Positions 1 to 20,215 of a stretch of DNA of 24,000 bases are shown one piece after another. Position numbers and translations under genes: made by a program. The notes below the pieces were generated by a model, which did not search any database, was not told the DNA's origin, and worked only from the letters and a program-made list of their open reading frames with translations. The stretch is from a bacterium (GTDB taxonomy: Bacteria; Bacillota; Clostridia; Oscillospirales; Oscillospiraceae): NCBI GenBank assembly GCA_037245165.1, contig JAXWVI010000033.1:54796-78795 (forward strand). Direction: 5' to 3'. Position 1 is the stretch's first letter. The number at the start of each line of letters is the position of its first letter.

Positions 1-157
1 CTCCCGCCTGACGGCGCACGCCGTGTGGGCCATCGGAAAGCACCATGGAGGGGACGCCGGCCTGGGGAAACTCATAGGTGCTCCAGATGTCCCGGCCGGA
101 CAGGAGAGCGACCTTCTGCTTCAGGGTCAGCTTTTTTAAAATGTCTTCGTGCTTCAT
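1..157 (-). CDS. glycoside hydrolase family 3 (beta-glucosidase-like), first 52 codons only; the gene runs off the left edge
   Basis: Reverse complement of 1..157 reads MKHEDILKKLTLKQKVALLSGRDIWSTYEFPQAGVPSMVLSDGPHGVRRQAG. An AAGGAG (complement of 166..171) lies 8 nt upstream of the ATG. The LSGxDxW...SDGPHGxR string is the usual GH3 N-terminus. Absent from the ORF track because it is truncated. Confidence 0.75.
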   Translation of the reverse strand, partial: MKHEDILKKLTLKQKVALLSGRDIWSTYEFPQAGVPSMVLSDGPHGVRRQAG

Positions 158-181
158 AGGTCCAGCTCCTTATTTTATCAG

Positions 182-212
182 GGGCGGGCCGTTCCCAAGG
201 AACGGCCCGCCC
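182..212 (-). terminator. GC-rich stem-loop between the two GH3 genes (weak terminator or mRNA-stabilising hairpin)
   Basis: GGGCGGGCCGTTCC-caa-GGAACGGCCCGCCC, a 14-bp perfect stem located after the stop of the 969-aa GH3 gene. No clear U-tract on either strand. Confidence 0.3.
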
Positions 213-239
213 GCGGTTTCATTCCGGCATGGGGACAGA

Positions 240-3149
240 TTAGTCCTCGATCTTCTTGGCCTTTTTCCCGATGGCCACAGCGCCGGCCACAACGGCCAGG
301 CCGATGACTACGTCAGCGCCGATGAGCAGCTTCTGCCAGGTCTGCATACCGGGGTTCAGGTTCTCCTCGGCGTAAGCACGGGAGTTGACCACGGTGTACA
401 GGATATTTTTAGAAGCCTGACGCATGGCCAGAACAGAGGTAGCGCTCTCGGTGTCGGTAACATGGTTGGTGTCGGTGTCATAGTTCACCAGACAGAAGTC
501 GGTGCCGCCCCGGATGGCCTGGTCGGCGTCCATATAGCCGTACACGCCGAAGTAGTCGGTGAGCACCATGCCTACGAAGCCCCACTCGTCCCGGAGAACC
601 ACGTTGCACAGCTCGTTGTTGGCGCCGGTCCACTGGGTACCGATGTAGTTGAAGGAGGACATGACGGCGTCGGCGCCGCCCTCCTTGACGGAGATTTCAA
701 AGGGCTTGAGGTAGATTTCCCGGATGGCCTGCTCGTTGGACCAGGTACACAGCATGCTGTTCCGGTTGCCCTCCTGGTCGTTGAGGGCGTAGTGCTTGAT
801 GTAGGCATACACGCCGAATTCCTCCGCGCCCTGGATGGCCTGAGCGGCAATCTTGCCGGACAGAAGGCTGTCCTCGGAGTAGTACTCGAAGTTCCGGCCG
901 GCAAAGGCGGAGCGGTGGATGTTCATAGCGGGGGCGTACCAGCCGGAGGTGTCCATCTCGTCGGCCATCTTGCCGATGCTGCGGCCGAATTCCTTGGCCA
1001 GATCCGGGCTCCAGGTGGCGGCAATCATCACTCCGGCGGGGAAGCCCACGGAGCCCTGGCCGGTAAAGTTGTTGTTGATGGAGGCAGGGCCGTCGCAGTC
1101 ATAGGTCTGTACCTTCTGAATGCTGGAAATGGGGGCAGTCTGATAGCCGCCGTAGGCGATGAGGCTGTCCATCTCGGAGATGGTCAGCTGATCCAGCAGC
1201 TGGTCCCACTTGGGGTCGTCGTAGGCCACACCCCGCAGATCCACCAGCTTCAAGCCGTTCTTGGCCCCGGTGGTGGGCATGACGTCGTCGGGGTTATTGT
1301 ACTGAGTGGGGTCGTAGTTGTTATTGTTGATAAAGGCGGCCTTGCTCTCCTCATCCAGAGAGAGGTTGGTGGGGGCAGCGGTGGCCTCGTCATAGTTGGC
1401 AAAGCCATCAGCCCGGCTGAGATAGGTGGCGTTGCCCTCGGCAAAGGCAAACTGGTTGGTGGCAGGGGTCTTGTCGCTGCTGCGGCCGTCCTTGTAGGAG
1501 ATGGTCTCAGGCACGATGTACTCCTGAGAGTCCAGAACGGTGTGGGAGTCGGCGTTGATGGAGATAGTGTATACGCCGCCTTCCAGCACATAGGCGCCCT
1601 CGCCATAGGTGTCATAGGAGGCCATATCCTCCAGCTTGATGGTAAAGCTGAGCGTCTCGGAGGCGCCGGGTTCCAGGGTCCCGGTCTTGTCAAAGGCAAT
1701 GAGGTTGGCGCTGGCCTTTTCAATGCCGCCATTGGTGTAGGGGGGATTGTAGTAGACCTCCACCACATCCTTGCCGGCCACAGCGCCGGTATTGGTGACA
1801 GTTACGTCAAAGGAGAGGGTGCCGTTGGCCAGATCCTCGGTGAGGATGCTCATCTCCTGGGTAAAGGTGGTGTAGCTCAGGCCGTAGCCGAAGGGGTACT
1901 GAACGGTGGCATCGTAGTCGATGAGGCCCTCCACAGCGGCGGTCTCATAGAACTTATAGCCTACATAGATGCCTTCCACATAGTTGACAAAGGCGGGGGT
2001 GGCGTTCTGGTTGAAGCTGCCTCCGGCCAGATACTCGTCCATATTGTCATAGTAGAATGCGCCGAAGTTGTTCCAGGTGGGGGTCTGGGTCAGGTCGTAG
2101 ACAAAGGTGTCAATGAGGCAGCCGGAGGGGCTGACAGTGCCGTTAAGGATATTGCCCAGACCGTTGAAGCCACCCTGGCCGGTGCCGGCGCACCAGATGA
2201 CGCTCTGAATCTGGTCATAGTCCTCCACAAAGCCCAGCTCAAAGGGGTTGGCGCCGTTGTAGAGAAGGATCACCTTGTCAAAGTTGGCGCACACCAGGTC
2301 CAGCAGCTCCTCCTCCCGGTTGGAAAGCTCCAGGAAGTGATCGCCCTGGTCCCAGTCGTTGCCCTCGTTGAGGCTGTCGTCATAGGTGCCCCGGTAGTAG
2401 GCGGAGTCGCCGCCCACGGACTGCTCGCTGTTCCAGGTGCCGTCCACCACGGCGGCCATATCGGTGGGCAGGTCGGCGCCCTCGCCGCCCACACGGCCGA
2501 TCACCACCATGGCGGTGTCGGAGAAGTCCTTGGCGTTCTGGATCATCTCATCGGTGTACAGGTTCACATTGGGTTCAGGCAGGGTCCAGTCCTGGGCGCT
2601 CATGCCCACGGAGGGGCGGTCGGCCTTGTAGTCGATGTAGAACTGGCTGAGCTCCTCATTGGTGGTAAAGCCGGCGTTGGCCAGGCCCTCCAGCAGGGTG
2701 GTGGTGTGGTAGGCGTCGTTCAAAGAGCCGGAACCGGTGCCGCCGTACACGGGGTTGGTGGAGGCCCAGCCGAAGACGTTCAGGTTGGTATTGGCCTGGA
2801 GAGGCAGGGCGCTGTTGTCATTCTCCAGCAGCACAATGCCCTCCTCAGCAATGTCCTCCACCAGGGCAGAAGCCTCGGCGGAGGTCTCCTCGCTGATGGT
2901 GCCGCCTCCGGTGGCAAGCGAGATCATGGTAAACATGGGGCCGGTGCAGATCAAATTGACGATCACGGCCACGGCCAGGATCATGGCCATCGCTGTCTCG
3001 CCCCGGGCCAGGAACTTCTTGCTTTTGGGCAGTTTGCGCACAGCGACCATAATGGCAATGCCCAGCACGATTACGACGGCAAGGGCAATCAGGTGATACT
3101 TGACGGAACTGAGTACCTTATAGACGTCGTCCATGTTGATACTTAACAT
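240..3149 (-). CDS. membrane-anchored glycoside hydrolase family 3 (beta-glucosidase / beta-xylosidase-like), 969 aa
   Basis: GH3 hallmarks in the translation: KHYALNDQEGNRN, SFNYIGTQWTGANNELCNVVLRDEWGFVGMVLTDY (nucleophile Asp context), and a long beta-sandwich/Fn3-like tail. Hydrophobic segments sit at the N-terminus (HLIALAVVIVLGIAIMVAV, MAMILAVAVIVNLICTGPMF) and the extreme C-terminus (LLIGADVVIGLAVVAGAVAIGKKAKK). An AGGAGGA lies ~8 nt upstream of the ATG at 3149. Confidence 0.9.
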   Translation of the reverse strand: MLSINMDDVYKVLSSVKYHLIALAVVIVLGIAIMVAVRKLPKSKKFLARGETAMAMILAVAVIVNLICTGPMFTMISLATGGGTISEETSAEASALVEDIAEEGIVLLENDNSALPLQANTNLNVFGWASTNPVYGGTGSGSLNDAYHTTTLLEGLANAGFTTNEELSQFYIDYKADRPSVGMSAQDWTLPEPNVNLYTDEMIQNAKDFSDTAMVVIGRVGGEGADLPTDMAAVVDGTWNSEQSVGGDSAYYRGTYDDSLNEGNDWDQGDHFLELSNREEELLDLVCANFDKVILLYNGANPFELGFVEDYDQIQSVIWCAGTGQGGFNGLGNILNGTVSPSGCLIDTFVYDLTQTPTWNNFGAFYYDNMDEYLAGGSFNQNATPAFVNYVEGIYVGYKFYETAAVEGLIDYDATVQYPFGYGLSYTTFTQEMSILTEDLANGTLSFDVTVTNTGAVAGKDVVEVYYNPPYTNGGIEKASANLIAFDKTGTLEPGASETLSFTIKLEDMASYDTYGEGAYVLEGGVYTISINADSHTVLDSQEYIVPETISYKDGRSSDKTPATNQFAFAEGNATYLSRADGFANYDEATAAPTNLSLDEESKAAFINNNNYDPTQYNNPDDVMPTTGAKNGLKLVDLRGVAYDDPKWDQLLDQLTISEMDSLIAYGGYQTAPISSIQKVQTYDCDGPASINNNFTGQGSVGFPAGVMIAATWSPDLAKEFGRSIGKMADEMDTSGWYAPAMNIHRSAFAGRNFEYYSEDSLLSGKIAAQAIQGAEEFGVYAYIKHYALNDQEGNRNSMLCTWSNEQAIREIYLKPFEISVKEGGADAVMSSFNYIGTQWTGANNELCNVVLRDEWGFVGMVLTDYFGVYGYMDADQAIRGGTDFCLVNYDTDTNHVTDTESATSVLAMRQASKNILYTVVNSRAYAEENLNPGMQTWQKLLIGADVVIGLAVVAGAVAIGKKAKKIED

Positions 3150-10390: not shown

Positions 10391-10477
10391 GCCGGAGTGG
10401 CGGAATTGGCAGACGCCCGGGACTTAAAATCCCGTGGGAGCGATCCCGTGCCGGTTCGATCCCGGTCTCCGGCACCA
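10391..10477 (+). tRNA. tRNA-Leu (anticodon UAA), class II with long variable arm, CCA encoded
   Basis: Acceptor GCCGGAG/CTCCGGC. Anticodon arm CGGGA-CTTAAAA-TCCCG. Long variable arm. T-arm CCGG-TTCGATC-CCGG. Ends in CCA. Confidence 0.9.
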
Positions 10478-10575: not shown

Positions 10576-10651
10576 CGCGGGGTAGAGCAGTTGGTAGCTC
10601 GTCGGGCTCATAACCCGGAGGCCGGTGGTTCAAGTCCATCCCCCGCAACCA
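10576..10651 (+). tRNA. initiator tRNA-fMet (anticodon CAU)
   Basis: CGCGGGG...CCCCGCAACCA gives the C1:A72 mismatch. Three consecutive G-C pairs close the anticodon stem (GGG/CCC) next to the CTCATAA loop. T-arm GGTGGTTCAAGTCCATC. All are bacterial initiator hallmarks, and the sequence is very close to E. coli tRNA-fMet. Confidence 0.92.
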
Positions 10652-10890: not shown

Positions 10891-12252
10891 TCACTCTGAA
10901 AAGTTCGGCAGCGTAATGCCCGCAAATTTCGCCCGCTTCTTGGCTCCGTTGAGACGAGGTGCATTTGACAGCTTCTCCATGTCCAGATAATCCGTCATGG
11001 CGGTGATCGCGTCCCGCTCCACATCGTCATTCTTATGCAGATACTTTCTGGTCGTTTCAATAGATGAATGTCCCAGGATGCCCTGTACAATATTCAGCGG
11101 CGTCTTCTCTTCTACCAGACGGGTCGCCAATGTGTGCCTCAATGCGTGGGGATTTACCTTTTTGATCTCGCACCGTTTGGATATGGCGGCCAAGCGGATC
11201 TCAAAGGACTTGGGATCAATGTAAGTTCCAGCTTTCGAGGGGAACAGCAGGTTATCCGGATTAGGCCAACTGGAGTGTGCCAGCGTGAAGATATGCCGCA
11301 CCAGCAGTTCGCACAGCCCATCAGAAATCGCGATCTCCCGGTTTGAGCTTTTCGTCTTAGGCGTACTCTGTACAATAAGATGGGTCTTTTTCTCCGGGTC
11401 GTAGTTGAGAATCTTAATGTTTGGATTCTCCAGGGACAGCGCCTCGGTTTTCACCCGAATGAGATTTTTATTGATCGTAAGGGTCTGGCGCTCCAGGTTC
11501 AAATCCGAAATTTCCAGCGCCAACAGCTCTCCCACTCTGAAGCCAACGAACAAATCTGTAAGGATTGCGATACGCTGGGTTTCCTTCATGACTTCTTCAA
11601 TGAAAATCCGCATTTCATCAGGACTCAGAACACGCATCTCTTTCTGAACGACTTCCGGCCGTGTGGTACTGAGCGTCGGGTTGCCCGGCAGTTTGTACTT
11701 CCCGATGGCGTATTCAAAGAAGTCCTTTAGTATCATGTGGTGGTTCCGGATCGTCTTGGGCGAGAGGCCGCCCTTCTTCCCATCCATTCGGCCGCCGTTT
11801 AGCTGCTTGATCTGGTAGTATTCCTGTATCACATCCTGCGTGATCTGATACAACGGCATGGTGCCGAATGCTGGGCCAAAATGAGTGTTATAGGTGTCGA
11901 TGTAGCTGGCATAGGTAGAGGGCTTGCGCGTAGGAGGGGATTTATAAAGCCGAAGCCACTCCAGAAAAGCCTCCTCAAACAGTGTCTCCGATTCTATGGA
12001 ATGTCCCAGCCGCTTTTGTTCTTCTTCAAGCCGTTCTGTCTCTCGCTGCTCGTTCTCGGCCTGTGCTTTCAACGCGGCCTGCTGTGCTTCCCATTCCTCT
12101 TTGCGCTGTTTGCAGATCGCTTTCGTGCGGCCTTTGAAGGATTTCCTCTCAGGAGCGCCATTTTCCTTGCGGCCAACCGTGATCTGATAGACCCATGTGC
12201 GGTCTGAAAGCTGCCAAAAGCTGCCTTCACCATTTGAGCGTTTCTTAGCCAT
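10891..12252 (-). CDS. int: tyrosine recombinase / phage-type integrase
   Basis: C-terminal catalytic region with HALRHTLATRL and GHSSIETTRKYLH (the R..HxxR..Y set). SAM-like core-binding N-domain and a Lys/Glu-rich arm region. Start set at MAKKRSNGEGS (ATG 12252, GGAGG 5 nt upstream) rather than the track's 12264. Confidence 0.92.
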   Translation of the reverse strand: MAKKRSNGEGSFWQLSDRTWVYQITVGRKENGAPERKSFKGRTKAICKQRKEEWEAQQAALKAQAENEQRETERLEEEQKRLGHSIESETLFEEAFLEWLRLYKSPPTRKPSTYASYIDTYNTHFGPAFGTMPLYQITQDVIQEYYQIKQLNGGRMDGKKGGLSPKTIRNHHMILKDFFEYAIGKYKLPGNPTLSTTRPEVVQKEMRVLSPDEMRIFIEEVMKETQRIAILTDLFVGFRVGELLALEISDLNLERQTLTINKNLIRVKTEALSLENPNIKILNYDPEKKTHLIVQSTPKTKSSNREIAISDGLCELLVRHIFTLAHSSWPNPDNLLFPSKAGTYIDPKSFEIRLAAISKRCEIKKVNPHALRHTLATRLVEEKTPLNIVQGILGHSSIETTRKYLHKNDDVERDAITAMTDYLDMEKLSNAPRLNGAKKRAKFAGITLPNFSE

Positions 12253-12292
12253 AAATACCTCCAATTAAATACGTCATAATTGAAGATTTGGC

Positions 12293-12713: not shown

Positions 12714-13004
12714 CTATTGTTCTGGCGTCAGCATTGACTGTTCGTAAGCAAACAGCCGGCCTAGTATGCACTCCCAGCCTCGACGTGCGAAAATTTTTCC
12801 GTTTGGAGCTATTGCAGTGTACGGTTCCCAGCACTCCACTCGGCGGCCTGCTCGTTCTCTGTCCGGTGGAATACCGGAAACCTCGTATTCATGCAATCGC
12901 CGAACCGCAGAATCATAACCGTACCGTGCGGTCACAGATCCATCTTCCCACAATACCAAACTGCTCTCAAAGGAATCGTGATCTTCACTGGTATTGCCCA
13001 TCAT
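12714..13004 (-). CDS. hypothetical small protein (96 aa), in the position of Tn916 orf8
   Basis: AGGAGGGA SD 8 nt upstream of the ATG at 13004. The track's longer 142-aa version would read through the 13037..13066 terminator. It contains two copies of an RL-x-x-YE-(5 aa)-P motif (RRLHEYEVSGIPP, GRLFAYEQSMLTP). Confidence 0.55.
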   Translation of the reverse strand: MMGNTSEDHDSFESSLVLWEDGSVTARYGYDSAVRRLHEYEVSGIPPDRERAGRRVECWEPYTAIAPNGKIFARRGWECILGRLFAYEQSMLTPEQ

Positions 13005-14378: not shown

Positions 14379-15068
14379 CTATCCCGCGAATCGGTATCCA
14401 ACGCCGCGAACATTTTGTATATACTCTTTGGGCGCCTGGGCCAATTTTTTCCTGAGCGCTTTGATGCTGGACTTGACTGCTTCATCCACATTGTAGTCCG
14501 CCTCATTATGCCAGACGTTGTGATAGATCTGCTCTCGTGTGAAAACCTGGCCCGGATAACTGGCCAGAAAGTACAGCACGTCAAACTCCTTTCGGGTCAG
14601 TTCCAGCCAATTCCCATTTAAGACCACCTGGCGATGGAGTGGGTCGATGGTCAATTCCATACCAAAGGACAAGGTATAGCAGCGCTTTTCTGAATACTCT
14701 GACCCCAGATAGAATTGGACAAGAGCGCGGGACTGAGCAATGAAGTGCCGTAATTCAACGGACTTCGGGACACAAACGGTTGCCCCCAGCGAGAAAAATT
14801 TGATTTCGTCCTCAACAGACTTCCCATCTGTGAGCACCAGGATCGGGACCGGTTTGGCCCTATGCATCATTTGGAGCAGTTTGTGACTGTCCACATTCTC
14901 CAGGCAGCTATCCATAATAACCAGGCAGTATCGCTGCCTGGTATAGCTGTCCAGAGCATCCGCCACGGTTAGAAAGTATTGAATGGTTGTGGTGTCGTCC
15001 TGCATGGTCTCCTGGAATCTTCTGCAAAAAGAGAAGTCGTCGCACATTAAGAGAATCTGTTTCCGCAT
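14379..15068 (-). CDS. OmpR/PhoB-family response regulator (REC + winged helix), no cognate kinase nearby
   Basis: Winged-helix region: LTRKEFDVLYFLASYPGQVFTREQIYHNVW...VKSSIKALRKKL...IQNVRGVGYRF. REC-like N-terminus with CDD, VIMDSC (putative phospho-Asp), LVLTD and VPKS. Confidence 0.85.
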   Translation of the reverse strand: MRKQILLMCDDFSFCRRFQETMQDDTTTIQYFLTVADALDSYTRQRYCLVIMDSCLENVDSHKLLQMMHRAKPVPILVLTDGKSVEDEIKFFSLGATVCVPKSVELRHFIAQSRALVQFYLGSEYSEKRCYTLSFGMELTIDPLHRQVVLNGNWLELTRKEFDVLYFLASYPGQVFTREQIYHNVWHNEADYNVDEAVKSSIKALRKKLAQAPKEYIQNVRGVGYRFAG

Positions 15069-15126
15069 CGCATAGAATTACCTCAAAAACGGAATTTTGT
15101 TATTTATTGTTAGTCAAAGCGAACTA

Positions 15127-15155
15127 AGTATAACGCTTTTGTGGTTATGGGTCAA
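15127..15155 (-). promoter_or_regulatory. putative own promoter of the OmpR-type regulator gene
   Basis: Minus strand: TTGACC (15155..15150), 17 nt, TATACT (15132..15127), about 55 nt upstream of the ATG. Confidence 0.55.
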
Positions 15156-15417
15156 GACGAATAGCAAAATTACCTACTGGTTAAGAGGGAAAAGAGCCGC
15201 TGTGCCGTAGTTTTTGAACGCACAAACGGAATCCCAGAATAAGATGACTCCTTAGAGACAAATCGGAGATTTGAGCCCTATCTAGGGGGGCGAATAGGGA
15301 AACGGGCCATTTTAGCCCGCTTCTTATAACTTTAAATAGATTGCAGGGATTTTGTTAAGACCTTGAGAAATCAACCCGGAGAGGGTTTCGCCGGGCGCTA
15401 ACACCTAAGCGTTCTTC

Positions 15418-18249
15418 CTACAATGCGTACTTTTTGATCAGATAATCAAAAAAATCCTTGGCCTCATATACCGCTTTGTCCGGGAGCTTTTGTTCTGTCA
15501 GGGCTTTTGGAATCTCCAGCCCGGAAACACCTGCCGCCACTCGGCGGAATACCACCCGGCGGTCTGCCAGCCGCAGCCGCATAATGCGGTAGCCCTGGCT
15601 GATCCACGCATTGGAGATGCAGTATTCTCTTTCCGGAGGGGTGATCGCGTGGAAGGGAAACTCCAGCTCCCAGAGCGCGGAATTCATTCCAGCGGCTTCA
15701 TCAAACCACCACGCCTCGCAAAAATAGGCTTCCCAGTCCAGACGGTCCCCGATGATCTCCTCAATGTCTGAAAAAGTCAACGTGACCGGTGAGCGGCTAC
15801 ACAGCCGGAAAAACTCCCGCAGCGGATAATAGGGGTCCTCTATCTGAGGGAATTCCGTTGCTCCCTCCAAAAGCGTGAGCACATCTATGCCGTTCTCCTC
15901 CCCCTGAACCTTCACAACGTCATAGCCGCATCGTTTATGGATGTACGCCATGTTCTGTAGTCTGCGCCCCTTTCCCGGGGCGATTTCCACTAATTCAACC
16001 TCTTGGTCCGGGAGCATGGGCCGTCCGCAGTAATAGCACCGCCCGGCCTGCCGCATCCAAACAGAGCGCCGCTGAGGCCCGCTGACCTTTTGATCGTCCC
16101 GCTGGCACCGCAGCCACAGACCATACTCCTGGTCCAGATAGGGGTGGAAACCGGTGCGGATGGCCTTGTGTTCTGTAAAGTTCAAAGCGGTCAGTCGGAG
16201 AACTTGGATGCTCTTTTTATTCTGAACGGCAAAGATATGCTCGCCCTGGTTTGTACGAAACCAGTACCGCTTGCGGATATGCTCCCACTGCCGCTTTGGA
16301 TGGAGCTGCCGCATCTTTTTGACCAGCAGGCTCTGCACTACTGTGTCGATCCGCCGGAAGGCGTCGTAGGCGTCTGTGATTCGGTGATAGTTGCCCCAGC
16401 CGGACAGCCTGCGGTTGAGACGTTGGATCAGAGTCTTCTGTGAGCCATGGAAATTCAAGATAAATTCAGACAGCCTTTGCTCAAAATCGTTGACCGCCTT
16501 CTGTGAGGGGCGGACCATCAAGACCCCATCTTTCCGCTCGTAATGACGGGAGAGGAAGTCAAACCCGACCGCAAGATGAAATACCCCGGTTTTATCCATA
16601 TTCAGTTTCAGCCCGCGTTCCGCCAGAAAATCGGTCAGCAGATCCAGCGCGGCGATCCCATCCGCCAGACTCCGCACGGATACGATCAGGTCATCGGCGT
16701 AGCGGATCAAATTCCCATTTTTGTAATCAATCTTTCCGTCTGGGTAAAGGTGCTCATAGAGGTATCGTTGAAGCCCATCCAACGTCATGTTGCCCAAGAT
16801 TGGGGAGAGCGTGGCCCCCATGGAAATGCCTTGTTCGGAGGGAAACAATTCCCCGGCAAACACAGCTCCCGCCCGCAGAAACTCCCGCAACACCTTGGTG
16901 TCCATAGGAATATGCTCTAAAAGCCATTTGTGGCTGATGGTATCATAGCAGGCTTTTACATCGGCGCGGACCACCCAATCAGGCGCATTGTCTCCTTCAA
17001 ATGCGGCGCAGATATAGGCGTGCGCGTCAAACATGGAGCGCCCCTTGCGAAAAGCGAATGATTTCCTATCTGCGGTGGATTCGGCCACCGGGTCCAGGGA
17101 GTAGGAATACAACGCCTGCATCGCTTTGTCATAGGCGGCCGGGACGTGGATGCGGCGCTCCTTCCCGCGCTCCGATACGATAATCCGGCGGTAGGGCTTG
17201 GCATGGTACCCACGGGAGGTCAGCGACAGGGCCGCGCGCATTTTCTCCGCGTCAGTCTGCCAGCGCACGCCGTCCACCCCTGCCTCGGAGTTGATCTGCA
17301 CTACATGGCGCACCGCCAAGACCTTGGCCGGAAGTGAGCGGACGAGCTGCTTTTGGAGCGCGGTCACGGCCTCACCGTCCCCGCTATATGCGGCGCGGGC
17401 CAGCCGCTGCTGAACGCGCAGGAGCTGATTCTCCATCTTGCCCCAGTCAATAGCGCGCCACATGACCGCCATATCCTCATCAGACAATTCCTTTCGCGGA
17501 GGCGCGGCTTGCAGGGTCAGGGAAATTGGGCAGTGATCGGACCCCAGAATGTCGGTGTGATGCTCCATGCTTCGGACAGAGGGAAGCAGGGCGTCGGACA
17601 CCAGGAAATAATCCAGCCGCCAGCCCCGGTTTTCCAGGCGTTTGTTCAATCGGTTGGACCACCAGGTATAGGCGCCGGTTTTTTCCGGATGGAGCGCCCG
17701 GAACACATCTACATAGCCGCGAGTCAACAGCCGTTCCATTCCCTCCCGTTCATCGGAAAGAAAGCCGGGCGGATTTTCTTCGTTGCGGAGGTTTTCGGGG
17801 TACACATCGAGATAGCTCCGCGCCACATTAAAGTCCCCGCAGAGGATGGCCGGCTTGTTCAGTCTGTCCAGAAAATCCAGCAGCGCCTGATCCCATGCAA
17901 TCCGGTAATCCAGCCGCTCGTCCGAGCTCTGGGAGTTAGGAACATACACGTTGACGATGCAAAAGGAGTCATATTCCAGTGCGATCAGCCTTCCTTCACA
18001 GTCGAGCTGGTCAATCCCAAACCCATACTGAACGGAGCGCGGTTCCTTTTTAGCCAGGATCAATGTCCCGGAATAGCCGCTTTGCTCCGCCAGATTCCAG
18101 TATTGAAGGTACTCCGGGGTATTCAGCGGGCAGTTCGTTCGTACCTCTTGGCAGCATACGATGTCCGCCCGGAGACGGGCGATGGATTTCAAAAATCCTT
18201 TGCGCTTACAGGCGGCCAGTCCGTTTACATTCCAGGAAACCAGCTTCAT
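15418..18249 (-). CDS. fusion protein: ExoIII/APE-type EEP nuclease + group II intron-type reverse transcriptase/maturase + degenerate HNH finger + unknown C-terminal domain
   Basis: Residue numbers follow the 953-aa track ORF. aa 11-256 are XthA-like: MKLVSWNVNGL, CCQEV, GDFNVA, WRLDYFLVS, GSDHCPISL. aa ~270-585 match group II RT blocks: AIDWGKMENQLLRVQQRL...LPAKVLAVRHVVQINSEAGVDGV (RT0), RRIHVPAAYDKAMQAL, FAFRKGRSMFDA, ADVKACYDTISH, QGISMGATLSPILGNMTLD, IRYADDLIV (16690..16701), LKLNMDKT, GFDFLS. X/thumb: LIQRLNRRLSGWGNYH. aa 748-784: CYYCG...VELVEI...NMAYIHKRC. aa ~815-953 form the extra domain. Start chosen at 18249 (GAGGG 7 nt upstream); the track's ATG at 18279 adds 10 aa. Confidence 0.9.
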   Translation of the reverse strand: MKLVSWNVNGLAACKRKGFLKSIARLRADIVCCQEVRTNCPLNTPEYLQYWNLAEQSGYSGTLILAKKEPRSVQYGFGIDQLDCEGRLIALEYDSFCIVNVYVPNSQSSDERLDYRIAWDQALLDFLDRLNKPAILCGDFNVARSYLDVYPENLRNEENPPGFLSDEREGMERLLTRGYVDVFRALHPEKTGAYTWWSNRLNKRLENRGWRLDYFLVSDALLPSVRSMEHHTDILGSDHCPISLTLQAAPPRKELSDEDMAVMWRAIDWGKMENQLLRVQQRLARAAYSGDGEAVTALQKQLVRSLPAKVLAVRHVVQINSEAGVDGVRWQTDAEKMRAALSLTSRGYHAKPYRRIIVSERGKERRIHVPAAYDKAMQALYSYSLDPVAESTADRKSFAFRKGRSMFDAHAYICAAFEGDNAPDWVVRADVKACYDTISHKWLLEHIPMDTKVLREFLRAGAVFAGELFPSEQGISMGATLSPILGNMTLDGLQRYLYEHLYPDGKIDYKNGNLIRYADDLIVSVRSLADGIAALDLLTDFLAERGLKLNMDKTGVFHLAVGFDFLSRHYERKDGVLMVRPSQKAVNDFEQRLSEFILNFHGSQKTLIQRLNRRLSGWGNYHRITDAYDAFRRIDTVVQSLLVKKMRQLHPKRQWEHIRKRYWFRTNQGEHIFAVQNKKSIQVLRLTALNFTEHKAIRTGFHPYLDQEYGLWLRCQRDDQKVSGPQRRSVWMRQAGRCYYCGRPMLPDQEVELVEIAPGKGRRLQNMAYIHKRCGYDVVKVQGEENGIDVLTLLEGATEFPQIEDPYYPLREFFRLCSRSPVTLTFSDIEEIIGDRLDWEAYFCEAWWFDEAAGMNSALWELEFPFHAITPPEREYCISNAWISQGYRIMRLRLADRRVVFRRVAAGVSGLEIPKALTEQKLPDKAVYEAKDFFDYLIKKYAL

Positions 18250-18270
18250 GGGGCATCCCTCATTTCCTGT

Positions 18271-18428
18271 ATATTCCATCTTCTTTTATCATAACGCATG
18301 ATGCGACTAAGGCCAAATAGAAATGCAAAAAATGACAATCCCATATTCCAGACAGCTCATGCCAGGGTGCATATATGGTTTGTCCAACGTTACATAGAAT
18401 GGTACTTCTCCTTCTCAAGCATATTCCA
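18271..18428 (-). repeat. three direct copies of TGGAATAT (minus-strand sense) in the RT upstream region
   Basis: ATATTCCA occurs on the plus strand at 18271..18278, 18343..18350 and 18421..18428, spaced 72 and 78 nt. The two distal copies share extended context: TGA(G/C)CTG..TGGAATATG. Confidence 0.6.
18288..18316 (-). promoter_or_regulatory. weak candidate promoter for the nuclease-RT gene
   Basis: Minus strand: TTGGCC (18316..18311), 17 nt, TATGAT (18293..18288). It would place the TSS near 18281, which favours the 18249 start. Confidence 0.3.
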
Positions 18429-18581
18429 CAGCAGTCAAAGCGCCAAGAGCGGTCGGAACGTCCTGTACCGCTACGGGTATTAAGAAGTGCTGCGGTTGGT
18501 AGCCTGGATGGGGAGGCGGCCTATAGTGTCCGCTGACGATCTGGCGGCCAAATGCGCCGCCCATACTGTAGCGCCGATGCC

Positions 18582-18610
18582 GTGACAAGCCGGAAAACCT
18601 ATGATATGAT
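18582..18610 (+). promoter_or_regulatory. putative promoter of the DUF4317 / IreB-like pair
   Basis: GTGACA (18582..18587), 17 nt, TATGAT (18605..18610). The 5' UTR would be about 47 nt. GAGG lies 8 nt before the ATG at 18665. Confidence 0.5.
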
Positions 18611-18664
18611 AACAACCAGAGCGGTCTGATCCGCACCAAATTTTGTACGAGCGAGGCAAGGACC

Positions 18665-19792
18665 ATGAATCAGAAAGAACTCAGCGAACTGCGCCGCCGG
18701 TTTCGCCCGGAAAAGAGCGCCATCAGCCATATTTATGGCTGCTACGTCAATGGAAGCCGGGAGATCATCTCCTATCTGGATGAGCCTATGGGCATGATGC
18801 CGCAGGAGGAGGCCGAGAAATACCTGGGCCTCTTGAGAAAAGCCCTTTCCGGGACGCTTGGCCGGAATCTTGTAGACATTGTATTCTCGACTCAGCAGGT
18901 CATGGACAGCGACGAACACCGCTTTCTGATGGGACTGCGGGATTCCCAACTGAAGGATGGGGCCCTCCGTCAGTCGTTCTATGATAAAGTTATCGCCTCT
19001 CTGGATATGGACGGCAGCAATTACCTGATCCTTCTGGCCCATGACGCATACGATGTCCCCTATAAGGGCCGGGACGGCGAACTACAGGATGACGCATCGG
19101 ACACCGTCTTTTCCTATATCATCTGCTGTGTCTGCCCAGTCAAGGATGGTAAGTTGGAACTGGGCTTTTTCTCCGGCGAAAATGAATTCCATAGCTGCGC
19201 GGCAAATCAGATCGTAGCTCCGCCAGAGTTGGGATTTCTCTTTCCGGCCTTCGACGACCGGGCGGCGAACATCTATAATGCTCTGCTCTATTCTAAAAAA
19301 GCGGACCAGCTCCATCAGGAATTCATCAATGCGGTATTCCGTACAGAGCCACCGCTGTCCGCGGCGGAACAGCGGGAGGCGTTTGAGGGGGCGCTGACTG
19401 GTGCGTTGGAGGATGCCTGCAGCATAGAAGTAGTACAGGCAGTTTATGAGCGTCTGCGGGATCAGATTGTTCAGCACAAGGAAACCAAGGACCCGGAGCC
19501 GCTGGCCCTCACCGCCGGCGATATTGGGAATATCCTGCGGGACTGCTCCGTACCGGAGGAACGGGTGTCCGCGTTCCTGGAACGGTGTGGAGAACGGCTG
19601 GGCGCCAACGTCGTACTCAACCCAGTGAATCTCATCGAGAGCGGAAAATTTGAGGTGGAAACAGCAGACGCCAAGCTGTCTCTTGACCCGGAGCATAGTT
19701 ATTTGCTGGAGATGCGGGTCATTGATGGGCGTCAATACCTGCTGTTTCCGGCAGACAGTGTGACAGTCAATGGGCTGCCGGTCCACACATAG
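18665..19792 (+). CDS. DUF4317-family protein (375 aa; family name from memory)
   Basis: The N-terminus MNQKELSELRRRFRPEKSAISHIYGCYVNGSREII matches my recollection of Clostridia DUF4317 proteins (M..KE..E.K..F.PE...I..I.GCYV). Codon usage is clean and there is no competing ORF. Confidence 0.75.
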   Translation: MNQKELSELRRRFRPEKSAISHIYGCYVNGSREIISYLDEPMGMMPQEEAEKYLGLLRKALSGTLGRNLVDIVFSTQQVMDSDEHRFLMGLRDSQLKDGALRQSFYDKVIASLDMDGSNYLILLAHDAYDVPYKGRDGELQDDASDTVFSYIICCVCPVKDGKLELGFFSGENEFHSCAANQIVAPPELGFLFPAFDDRAANIYNALLYSKKADQLHQEFINAVFRTEPPLSAAEQREAFEGALTGALEDACSIEVVQAVYERLRDQIVQHKETKDPEPLALTAGDIGNILRDCSVPEERVSAFLERCGERLGANVVLNPVNLIESGKFEVETADAKLSLDPEHSYLLEMRVIDGRQYLLFPADSVTVNGLPVHT

Positions 19793-19894
19793 AAGAAGCT
19801 GGAAGCGAAAGAGTAACAGTGAAACAGAAGGAGAACACGGAAGCCATATCACTTTAGCAGGAGATAGGGATACGAAAGAGAGTAGACGGGTAAT

Positions 19895-20116
19895 ATGACA
19901 GACATCGAACGGTTAAATTTTATATATGCGGCGCTTCAAGAGCGTGGCTATGCGCCAATCAGTCAAATTGTTGGTTTTTTGCTGTCTGGGGACCCAACCT
20001 ACATCACAAACCACAATGGAGCCCGAGCCATAGCTGGTCAAATTAACCGTTCCGAAATTCTGACAGAAATCGTTGGCGATTATATAAGTCATCATTGCCA
20101 TAGTCAAACACAATGA
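19895..20116 (+). CDS. ireB: IreB-family (UPF0297) small regulatory protein, 73 aa
   Basis: ALQERGYAPISQIVGFLLSGDPTYITNHNGARAIAGQINRSEILTEIVGDYI matches the IreB core (EKGYNP.NQI.GYLLSGDP.YIT.H..AR). The N-terminus is shorter than in typical IreB. Confidence 0.7.
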   Translation: MTDIERLNFIYAALQERGYAPISQIVGFLLSGDPTYITNHNGARAIAGQINRSEILTEIVGDYISHHCHSQTQ

Positions 20117-20215
20117 ATTGAAAAATACAGGAAATCTCCTGTATCAAAGTAATATGGCGCAGATGTCGATATGTTCTTTCCGTTGCTTCAAATAAGAGTT
20201 GCTGAACGAAAAAAA

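Follow-up and report, generated by a model that had tools for sequence, protein, structure and literature searches.

What does a bacterium gain by placing an ExoIII/APE-type nuclease and a reverse transcriptase (RT) of the group II intron type in one polypeptide? The question is raised by a gene in a 24,000-nucleotide stretch of Oscillospiraceae DNA (contig JAXWVI010000033.1 of assembly GCA_037245165.1, positions 54,796 to 78,795; this whole stretch is called the window), in which an unbroken open reading frame (ORF) of 953 codons runs along the minus strand at 15418..18279. The product joins an ExoA/Xth-type nuclease to an RT that carries all modules of a group II intron-encoded protein (IEP), and we refer to it as Xth-RT. 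The sequences compared with the window are numbered as loci (L001, L088, L096, and so on), and L021 served as the intron control. We consider the protein, with a probability of about 0.42, to be a domesticated, ribozyme-free derivative of an IEP in which Xth replaces a dead HNH nuclease and which has an accessory role in repair, damage tolerance, or establishment of its element and host.

The true start of the gene is most likely the ATG at 18249 (M11 of the ORF, MKLVSWNVNG), which gives a product of 943 aa, because the homologues all begin there (MK[IL]VSWN) and both a GAGGGA Shine-Dalgarno sequence and a -10-like TATGAT (18288-18293, consensus scan) lie upstream of it. Residue numbers are counted from this methionine. 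The gene and the parts of its product are as follows.

15418..18249, minus strand: coding sequence of the 943-aa Xth-RT fusion (stop codon at 15418-15420)
18288..18316, minus strand: putative promoter-like site TTGGCC-17-TATGAT, a consensus match only
17512..18249, minus strand: ExoA/Xth-type endonuclease for apurinic/apyrimidinic (AP) sites and 3'-5' exonuclease domain, residues 1-246
17467..17511, minus strand: variable linker QAAPPRKELSDED..., residues 247-261, about 13-15 aa
17215..17466, minus strand: RVT_N/RT0 extension at the N-terminus, typical of group II IEPs, residues 262-345 (Pfam RVT_N, 69.9 bits; aligned to the T.el4h IEP)
16495..17214, minus strand: RT fingers and palm, RT1-7, residues 346-585 (Pfam RVT_1, E 2.6e-27)
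16690..16701, minus strand: YADD polymerase active-site motif, residues 517-520, read from the sequence
16240..16494, minus strand: X/thumb region (maturase, GIIM), residues 586-670 (Pfam GIIM, 47.5 bits)
16060..16239, minus strand: DNA-binding (D) region, residues 671-730, homologous to endonuclease (En)-containing IEPs (6me0_C), mean pairwise identity 0.48
15910..16059, minus strand: degenerate En/HNH module with zinc ligands C738, C741, H771, and C774 kept
15421..15849, minus strand: family-specific C-terminal region, a DUF7662 module (about residues 801-880) and a second conserved module (about 881-943)

Enzymes of the ExoIII/ExoA type incise AP sites, clear 3' blocks, resect 3'->5' from nicks or ends, and have RNase H activity. 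The N-terminal domain of the fusion matched Pfam Exo_endo_phos at 14-249 (E 3.5e-26) and passed the NCBIfam xth model TIGR00633 (249 bits vs a cutoff of 99), whereas it missed the model for nucleases of long interspersed nuclear elements (LINEs; Exo_endo_phos_2, PF14529; 23.4 bits vs a cutoff of 27.4). Its best relatives were ExoA/APE1; Bacillus subtilis ExoA (5cfe) was matched by sequence with 234 bits and by Foldseek with a template-modelling (TM) score of 0.90 at 44% identity. In an alignment of 30 fused members with 45-88% identity to the window protein, the catalytic residues N7, E35, D139, N141, D213, D238, and H239 and the phosphate-clamp equivalents R87 and Y102 were invariant. The aromatic pair W196-W197, the counterpart of W212-F213 of Escherichia coli ExoIII, was also conserved in the family, and W212 and F213 are experimentally needed for the AP-endonuclease and 3'-5' exonuclease activities of ExoIII (PMC8887469). 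Judged by these residues, the nuclease appears fully equipped, every catalytic and DNA-clamp or contact residue being kept. The domain shared 44-50% identity with Firmicute ExoA or housekeeping xth products, and a search of genome contigs with the fusion was dominated by housekeeping xth genes. The identity of 45-50% to housekeeping Firmicute xth suggests that the Xth domain was recruited from a host-type gene.

Residues 272-794 aligned end to end with the full-length Thermosynechococcus IEP 6me0_C (E 1e-92, 314 bits). Because this alignment spans the full length, the RT part includes D and En regions besides RT0-7 and X. Pfam placed RVT_N at 274-353, RVT_1 at 372-576, and GIIM at 597-673, and Foldseek related the AlphaFold2 model of the fusion (mean predicted local distance difference test [pLDDT] 82, predicted TM score [pTM] 0.54) to the group II IEPs 8fli_B and 6me0_C with TM scores of 0.87-0.91. 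The RT residues D430, R516, and D519-D520 were invariant among the 30 aligned members, and the active-site motif varies as [Y/F/W]-[A/C]-D-D in the family, fused and split members included. The NCBIfam equivalog TIGR04416 (group_II_RT_mat) was missed, with 231 bits vs a cutoff of 300.

The En module has taken a different course from the rest of the IEP part. Its motif reads C..C...EIHHILP...DNL..IH..CH..VH in T.el4h and CYYC...ELVEIAP...QNM..IHKRCGYDVV in the window protein. The catalytic His-His is now V-E (V/I/A/T followed by E/P/K across the family), and CHKQVH at the end of the module has become CGYDVV with loss of the terminal His. Histidine was absent at the catalytic and terminal positions in 30 of 30 fused and 4 of 4 split members, while the four zinc ligands were invariant in the alignment, and Pfam HNH gave no match at E<=1 in the window protein. 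From these substitutions the En/HNH module is predicted to be catalytically dead, yet it is retained under what the alignment indicates to be purifying selection.

A fused frame of this kind could arise from an assembly or sequencing error that joined separate xth and intron RT genes, and the two parts are indeed separate genes in some relatives. However, the identical 943-aa protein was present on 73 public contigs from independent samples (NCBI, ENA, and Logan assemblies), the index of the collection listing it in 138 blocks, and more than 100 clusters (90% identity) with 45-99% identity to the window protein keep the colinear fused frame of about 945 aa. In the four split forms (L002, L096, L097, and L100), xth and RT are adjacent genes with overlapping stop and start codons, and such precise overlaps are unlike random frameshifts. 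The artefact explanation is effectively refuted, and we give it next to no weight. The overlap sites lie within the following segments.

L002:1150-1290: xth/RT overlap, ATGA or GTGA
L096:8650-8790: xth/RT overlap, ATGA or GTGA
L097:8650-8790: xth/RT overlap, ATGA or GTGA
L100:3540-3700: xth/RT overlap, ATGA or GTGA

The linker of the fused form falls where, in the split relatives, the xth stop codon overlaps the RT start. Its residues 250-253 had pLDDT values below 50 in the AlphaFold2 model, and the mean pairwise identity of the two linkers of the protein was 0.25, compared with 0.47-0.55 for each of the modules, the C-terminal region and the En remnant among them. The overlaps indicate that the split pairs are coupled in translation. 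Fusion and fission of xth and RT recur in the family and are one-nucleotide variants of the same partnership, and because fused forms and ATGA/GTGA-coupled split forms both occur, the Xth-RT partnership itself appears to be under selection.

These data bear on most of what a preliminary description, made from the letters of the window, had claimed for the protein. The single 953-codon ORF fusing nuclease to RT exists, and its 943-aa product recurs on the 73 contigs and, as a colinear frame, in the clusters; every EEP/ExoIII catalytic position that it listed is present and invariant; and the complete group II IEP that it placed after the linker was recognised by the three Pfam models and the 6me0_C alignment. 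Of the profiles that it named, Exo_endo_phos, RVT_1, and GIIM were found, and HNH was not at E<=1. Its view of the nuclease as bacterial XthA-like, with a convergent likeness to LINEs, agrees with the outcomes for TIGR00633 and PF14529 and with the identity to Firmicute ExoA, and the LINE-like domain order, an EEP nuclease ahead of an RT within a single ORF, was confirmed by Pfam and by Foldseek colinearity. It left a replacement of HNH implicit; what is seen is a catalytically dead HNH remnant, with its zinc ligands, that is kept under purifying selection. It had also taken two separate genes as an argument against the fusion; split pairs do exist, but as a natural, coupled variant of the same system they do not contradict it. 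The dead HNH, the C-terminal DUF7662 region, and the split forms were missed in that description.

The C-terminal region of about 160 aa is conserved and ends with KKYAL or KKYGL. Pfam matched DUF7662 at 817-912 (27.5 bits). A profile of the region, run against 1.84 billion representatives, retrieved 1483 proteins (E<=1e-3) and resolved the region into two separable modules, while a word-index homology search with the C-terminal domain gave fragments only. Elsewhere, DUF7662 occurs in 3-11 tandem copies in stand-alone proteins (e.g., 10 copies in a protein of 1167 aa) and is also joined to the phage-type Bro-N domain; examples outside the family are among P0126, P0143, P0163, and P0166. A separate AlphaFold2 model of the region (pLDDT 80) had no significant fold match in PDB or BFVD. 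Its weak fold matches were mostly winged-helix DNA or RNA binders, and we tentatively suggest that the region may bind nucleic acid.

An IEP is expected to lie within its own intron, and we searched for the RNA. In Rfam scans, the window matched only two tRNAs at E<=1 and yielded no group II intron RNA, nor did seven diverse family loci (+/-10 kb, ~138 kb) yield any at the gathering threshold. The control was positive: L021, a genuine IEP with 32% identity to the RT part of the window protein, had RF02012 (D1-D4, 117 bits) and RF00029 (D5/D6, 55 bits) flanking its ORF. These scans rule out an IEP within a group II ribozyme. All-against-all blastn of 400 nt upstream and 500 nt downstream at 13 loci gave only matches explained by synteny, ruling out a conserved flanking non-coding RNA (ncRNA) or untranslated region (UTR). 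A scan of the Xth/RT junction, aimed at a possible relic of the ancestral DIVa-type binding site, gave no RNAalifold consensus and minimum-free-energy z-scores of about 0 in 12 of 14 loci, and a DIVa-like RNA at the junction was ruled out on both counts. On one contig from a viral collection, the pemK RNA motif RF02913 was detected (L098:5598-5678, 69 bits) about 2.3 kb 5' of the fusion gene.

The same scans bear on whether the protein acts in trans as a maturase and RT for ORF-less group II introns elsewhere, with Xth replacing HNH in bottom-strand cleavage at retrohoming. The RT-X-D-En part is about 35-40% identical over about 520 residues to mobile-intron IEPs (314 bits to 6me0_C; 34-37% identity to plasmid ltrA), and its RNA-binding RT0, X, and D regions have been retained under selection. 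On the other hand, the scans that detected the control found no intron RNA in the 24 kb of the window or in the 10 kb on either side at the seven loci, the score for group_II_RT_mat fell short of its cutoff, and an AP endonuclease is ill-suited to sequence-positioned cutting of undamaged DNA. We regard a trans-acting maturase as highly improbable, the least probable of the roles considered here.

The gene lies in an ICE (integrative and conjugative element). On the chromosomal side, the window carries GH3, a LytTR two-component system, MgtE, DUF3048, and prfB, followed by two tRNA genes; the ICE then continues with the tyrosine integrase, a sigma-70 region-4 protein, an OmpR-type regulator, the fusion gene, DUF4317, DUF6744, and further ICE genes. 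A 1022-codon ORF without a Pfam match (78-3146, plus strand) is antisense to the GH3 gene (240-3149, minus strand) and is most likely spurious, a mirror ORF such as high-GC DNA can contain. The features around the fusion gene, and two regulator genes of other loci, are as follows.

10891..12264, minus strand: tyrosine integrase of the ICE, beside tRNA genes (10391-10474 and 10576-10648) that mark the integration end
14379..15068, minus strand: orphan OmpR-type response regulator (Pfam), a recurrent 3' neighbour of the fusion gene (context only)
18299..20209, unstranded: 1.9-kb insertion 5' of the RT gene with a DUF4317 gene (18665-19792, plus strand), absent from the syntenic L088 ICE (blastn, Pfam)
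L001:12851-13555: OmpR-type regulator without an adjacent histidine kinase
L108:10868-11542: OmpR-type regulator without an adjacent histidine kinase

An OmpR-type regulator gene also follows the fusion gene in L088/89, L001 (4 nt after the stop codon), L108-113 (9 nt), and the L092 remnant. The spacing of only 4-9 nt in two lineages suggests that the regulator may be co-transcribed with the fusion gene. In L088, DUF6744 and the RT gene are only 42 bp apart, and the 346 bp 3' of the RT gene in the window (15069-15414) are swapped for an unrelated 845 bp. With the 1.9-kb insertion upstream and this swap downstream, the DNA at both ends of the gene is variable through indels.

Such sharply bounded homology is what an autonomous, ribozyme-free, LINE-like retroelement might leave, with Xth nicking the target and the RT copying its own mRNA by target-primed reverse transcription (TPRT). 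The DNA homology between the window and L088 breaks off no more than 3 nt from the stop codon and, at the other end, about 50 nt 5' of the start, the order of APE-type nuclease and RT is that of L1 ORF2p, with which the protein aligns colinearly, and the replacement of a dead HNH by a working nuclease suggests that the RT still needs DNA cleavage; at L090, the fusion gene and a small helix-turn-helix (HTH) gene stand alone within a tRNA gene array. However, the fusion gene has diverged as far as the ICE backbone has, with 83% nucleotide identity to its L088 counterpart and 83-86% for the backbone (blastn). Identical proteins never occurred in differing local contexts, the local gene arrangement being constant in each of four abundant clusters (23, 24, 21, and 21 contigs), and neither a conserved 5' or 3' UTR nor an RNA structure at the junction was found. 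The AP-site recognition residues are kept, and the LINE-type endonuclease model remained below its cutoff. The sole internal 5'-truncated copy found (L092:6869-7888) encodes only residues ~668-943 and has the usual response-regulator gene 3' and a serine recombinase gene 5'; a LINE-like truncation was ruled out, since the copy still has its parental context and is the remnant of a deletion, and it looks like a system decaying through deletion or insertion. We therefore hold an autonomous retroelement to be very unlikely.

In other assemblies, the ICE of the window protein was found beside prfB, SpoU methylase, or mnmA (L114-L116), a sign that the ICE has recently moved between sites or hosts. 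Because the local arrangement is fixed while the chromosomal neighbours differ, it is the ICE that moves, and the fusion gene is its passenger, behaving as a stable, single-copy ICE cargo and not as a jumping gene. The preliminary description had proposed either an RT-based defence or repair effector carried as ICE cargo or a nick-and-prime retroelement and had suggested distinguishing multi-copy from island occurrence. The identical proteins share the same ICE arrangement with no scatter of copies, in keeping with ICE cargo, while the retroelement, in view of the missing ribozyme, UTR, and junction RNA and the constant local context, found no comparative support.

About 12 distinct contexts were seen, in which the gene occupies an accessory slot by the regulation/recombination module of Tn916-like ICEs or lies in phage-like or other integrated elements; the order in L102, for example, is HTH, RT, MmeI-type restriction-modification (RM), sigma-r4, Tn916-Xis, and Int. 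The L090 locus (L090:6233-13768; 62% identical protein) carries the fusion and the small HTH gene amid at least 22 arrayed tRNA genes, all on the opposite strand. The fusion gene there has its own ribosome-binding site and an intrinsic terminator (12845-12880) with no integrase nearby, and the locus may be a self-contained insertion. The named hosts are gut Clostridia (Oscillospiraceae, Dysosmobacter, and Flavonifractor plautii), and databases name the protein 'exodeoxyribonuclease III' or 'reverse transcriptase domain-containing protein'. The fusion was absent from 72,556 PLSDB plasmids and 50,697 phage genomes of INPHARED, the only matches there being stand-alone Xth or ordinary ltrA IEPs (34-37% identity over residues ~259-783).

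Cargo of this kind may also serve defence. An anti-phage or anti-plasmid RT resembling the defence-associated RTs (DRTs) would make DNA on infection, Xth would be its effector or processing nuclease, and the split forms would be two-gene defence operons. The gene sits in cargo slots of mobile elements beside RM systems (MmeI-type directly 3' in L102-107, HsdM in L096, and a Type III-like system in L081), a gene for a CHAT protein is also among the neighbours, and family members occur on IMG/VR 'viral' contigs. It appears to be an autonomous single-gene transcription unit with a putative promoter of its own: -10 boxes similar to that of the window lie 35-50 nt 5' of the start at most homologous loci, most of which have their own -10 box and Shine-Dalgarno sequence, and L090 also has its own clean intrinsic terminator. 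Precedents exist, since 25% of group II-like (G2L) RTs are near defence systems according to a review (PMC8632793), and a phage-defence function was described earlier for the PrimPol-RT protein PPRT (PMC12439943). Against these points, no specific defence RT of PADLOC or NCBIfam was matched beyond generic profiles (Drt3a, 43 vs a cutoff of 200), and the nuclease, a housekeeping-type enzyme of base-excision repair whose AP-site pocket is intact, does not resemble a typical toxic effector. There is no conserved neighbouring ncRNA, with intergenic gaps down to 9-100 nt, and RM genes adjoin the fusion in only about 3 of the 12 distinct contexts. Defence, including the operon interpretation of the split forms, is a possible role that we consider less probable than repair.

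Group II RTs are processive and template-switching and are able to use DNA templates. As an ExoA-type nuclease and a canonical RT are obligatorily coupled here, with a dead HNH and no ribozyme, nuclease-coupled priming is the simplest working model for the repair role that we favour. Xth would make or clean a 3'-OH in duplex DNA by incision at AP sites or damage, removal of blocked 3' ends, or 3'->5' resection. The tethered RT, through its YADD site, would extend this 3'-OH by gap-filling, strand displacement, or template switching on a DNA or RNA template, while nucleic-acid binding would come from the D region, from the dead En, and from both C-terminal modules, the dead HNH being kept, on this tentative proposal, as a zinc-binding scaffold. 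RNA templates, too, could be removed, through the RNase H activity known from enzymes of the ExoIII type. The role would be more like those of G2L4 and PrimPol-RT than like self-propagation. The context agrees with DNA processing: in four lineages the genes directly 5' are of the YpsA/DprA-like SLOG type, and genes for a Rad52-type annealase and an SMC-like ATPase are present within the same ICE. DUF6465 is another recurrent neighbour directly 5' of the gene. A part in double-strand break repair and microhomology-mediated end joining is reported for G2L4 and group II RTs (bioRxiv 10.1101/2022.03.14.484287; PMC12337344), and PrimPol-RT aids the response to oxidative damage (PMC12439943).

Repair-type and defence roles fit the data about equally, and repair is placed first, defence following it. 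Several points weigh against the repair role. Template and primer are inferred, as is the biological role. The hosts already own ExoA and Pol I, which leaves the benefit of the RT unaccounted for; the active site is a canonical YADD, unlike the YIDD of the repair enzyme G2L4; and the RM genes beside the fusion in about one quarter of the contexts suit defence equally. The pTM of the AlphaFold2 model leaves the inter-domain geometry uncertain, so that a coupling of the two active sites is conjectural. Upstream of the family genes, LexA/Cheo boxes were observed twice vs 1.7 expected, and no other damage-response motif was found there either.

A further reading is that of a natural nick-and-prime enzyme in which an APE-type 3'-OH would be used by the intron-derived RT to copy RNA into DNA (TPRT) without a ribozyme. 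We consider this improbable, although not to the degree of an autonomous retroelement. If true, prokaryotes would have arrived independently at the APE nuclease replacement thought to underlie LINE retrotransposons, and the activity could serve selfish spread, defence, or RNA-templated repair.

Whatever the role, Xth-RT presents a clear nuclease swap in a group II RT lineage, with HNH dead but kept and an APE/ExoIII-type enzyme recruited, and it offers a living bacterial model for the domain replacement invoked at the origin of APE-type non-LTR retrotransposons. Its relatives are plentiful on the conjugative elements of Clostridia from human and animal guts. To the domesticated group II-like RTs, which have recently yielded G2L4 in repair, PrimPol-RT in defence and repair, and enzymes of CRISPR spacer acquisition, the family adds a branch that is conserved, widespread, and apparently undescribed. 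The protein is also a possible tool, because a 3'-OH-generating nuclease and a processive intron-type RT share the logic of engineered prime editors.

Among known systems, the N-terminal 246 residues are a bona fide Xth by TIGR00633, identity, TM score (0.90), and residues. ExoIII and ExoA, as housekeeping enzymes, stand alone at about 250 aa, whereas the domain here is coupled covalently or translationally to an RT. A Helicobacteraceae lead for an Xth and RT pair (L064) was ruled out as a housekeeping xth followed by polA. At this locus (L064:4983-8558), polA (DNA polymerase I) begins 4 nt after xth, an AP endonuclease-polymerase operon parallel in logic to Xth-RT.

LINE-1 ORF2p (8UW3/9HDR) shares with the fusion an EEP nuclease followed by a non-LTR-type RT and a C-terminal cysteine-rich region, over about 890 colinear columns (Foldseek). 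The identity is only 15-16% with a root-mean-square deviation of about 25 A, the nuclease of the fusion is ExoA/APE1-like with an intact AP-site pocket, and the best relatives of its RT are group II IEPs. The hallmarks of LINEs, namely dispersed multiple copies, UTRs, 5' truncation, and target-site duplications, were not found for the fusion. Because the nuclease is bacterial ExoA/Xth-like and not LINE-like, the likeness to L1 ORF2p is convergent.

In the open-access literature, a bacterial ExoIII/APE-RT fusion is mentioned neither in the principal RT surveys (Simon & Zimmerly 2008; Toro & Nisa-Martinez 2014; myRT 2021; Gonzalez-Delgado 2021) nor in the PrimPol-RT 2025 preprint or the ExoIII 2022 paper, and full-text searches found no description of one; the architecture is apparently undescribed so far, in line with its placement outside the known classes in the preliminary description. 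The NCBIfam profiles of defence RTs were all missed (Drt3a, 43 vs 200 bits; retron, 36 vs 235; Drt2, 27 vs 390). The best PADLOC matches were generic RT models, and no Cas genes or conserved ncRNA partner were found. PPRT is likewise a single polypeptide in which a DNA enzyme at the N-terminus is followed by a group II-like RT and then by a long C-terminal domain (PMC12439943), but its N-terminal enzyme is a primase-polymerase instead of an EEP nuclease, its host range and C-terminal domain are different, and the appended domains are non-homologous; the PADLOC UG10 model gave only 27.8 bits with the fusion.

G2L4 and other G2L RTs are likewise free-standing and IEP-related, lack intron RNA, and keep the X domain (PMC2602772, PMC4244168, PMC12337344). 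G2L4 is a proteobacterial protein of about 420 aa with YIDD and no fused nuclease, whereas members of the Xth-RT family are clostridial proteins of about 945 aa with [Y/F]ADD, Xth, a dead En, and DUF7662. As an IEP-like RT without intron RNA, the fusion can be classed by its sequence as a G2L RT in the broad sense.

Group II IEPs with D and En regions (T.el4h 6ME0/8FLI; plasmid ltrA) have RVT_N/RT0, RT1-7 with YADD, X, D, and a zinc-containing En in the same order as the fusion. They differ from it in that no ribozyme domains were detected with the fusion, its HNH histidines are lost, Xth and a C-terminus of about 160 aa have been added, and its score is under the NCBIfam equivalog cutoff. It is from En-containing group II IEPs that the fusion descends, and it is like them that it works most closely.

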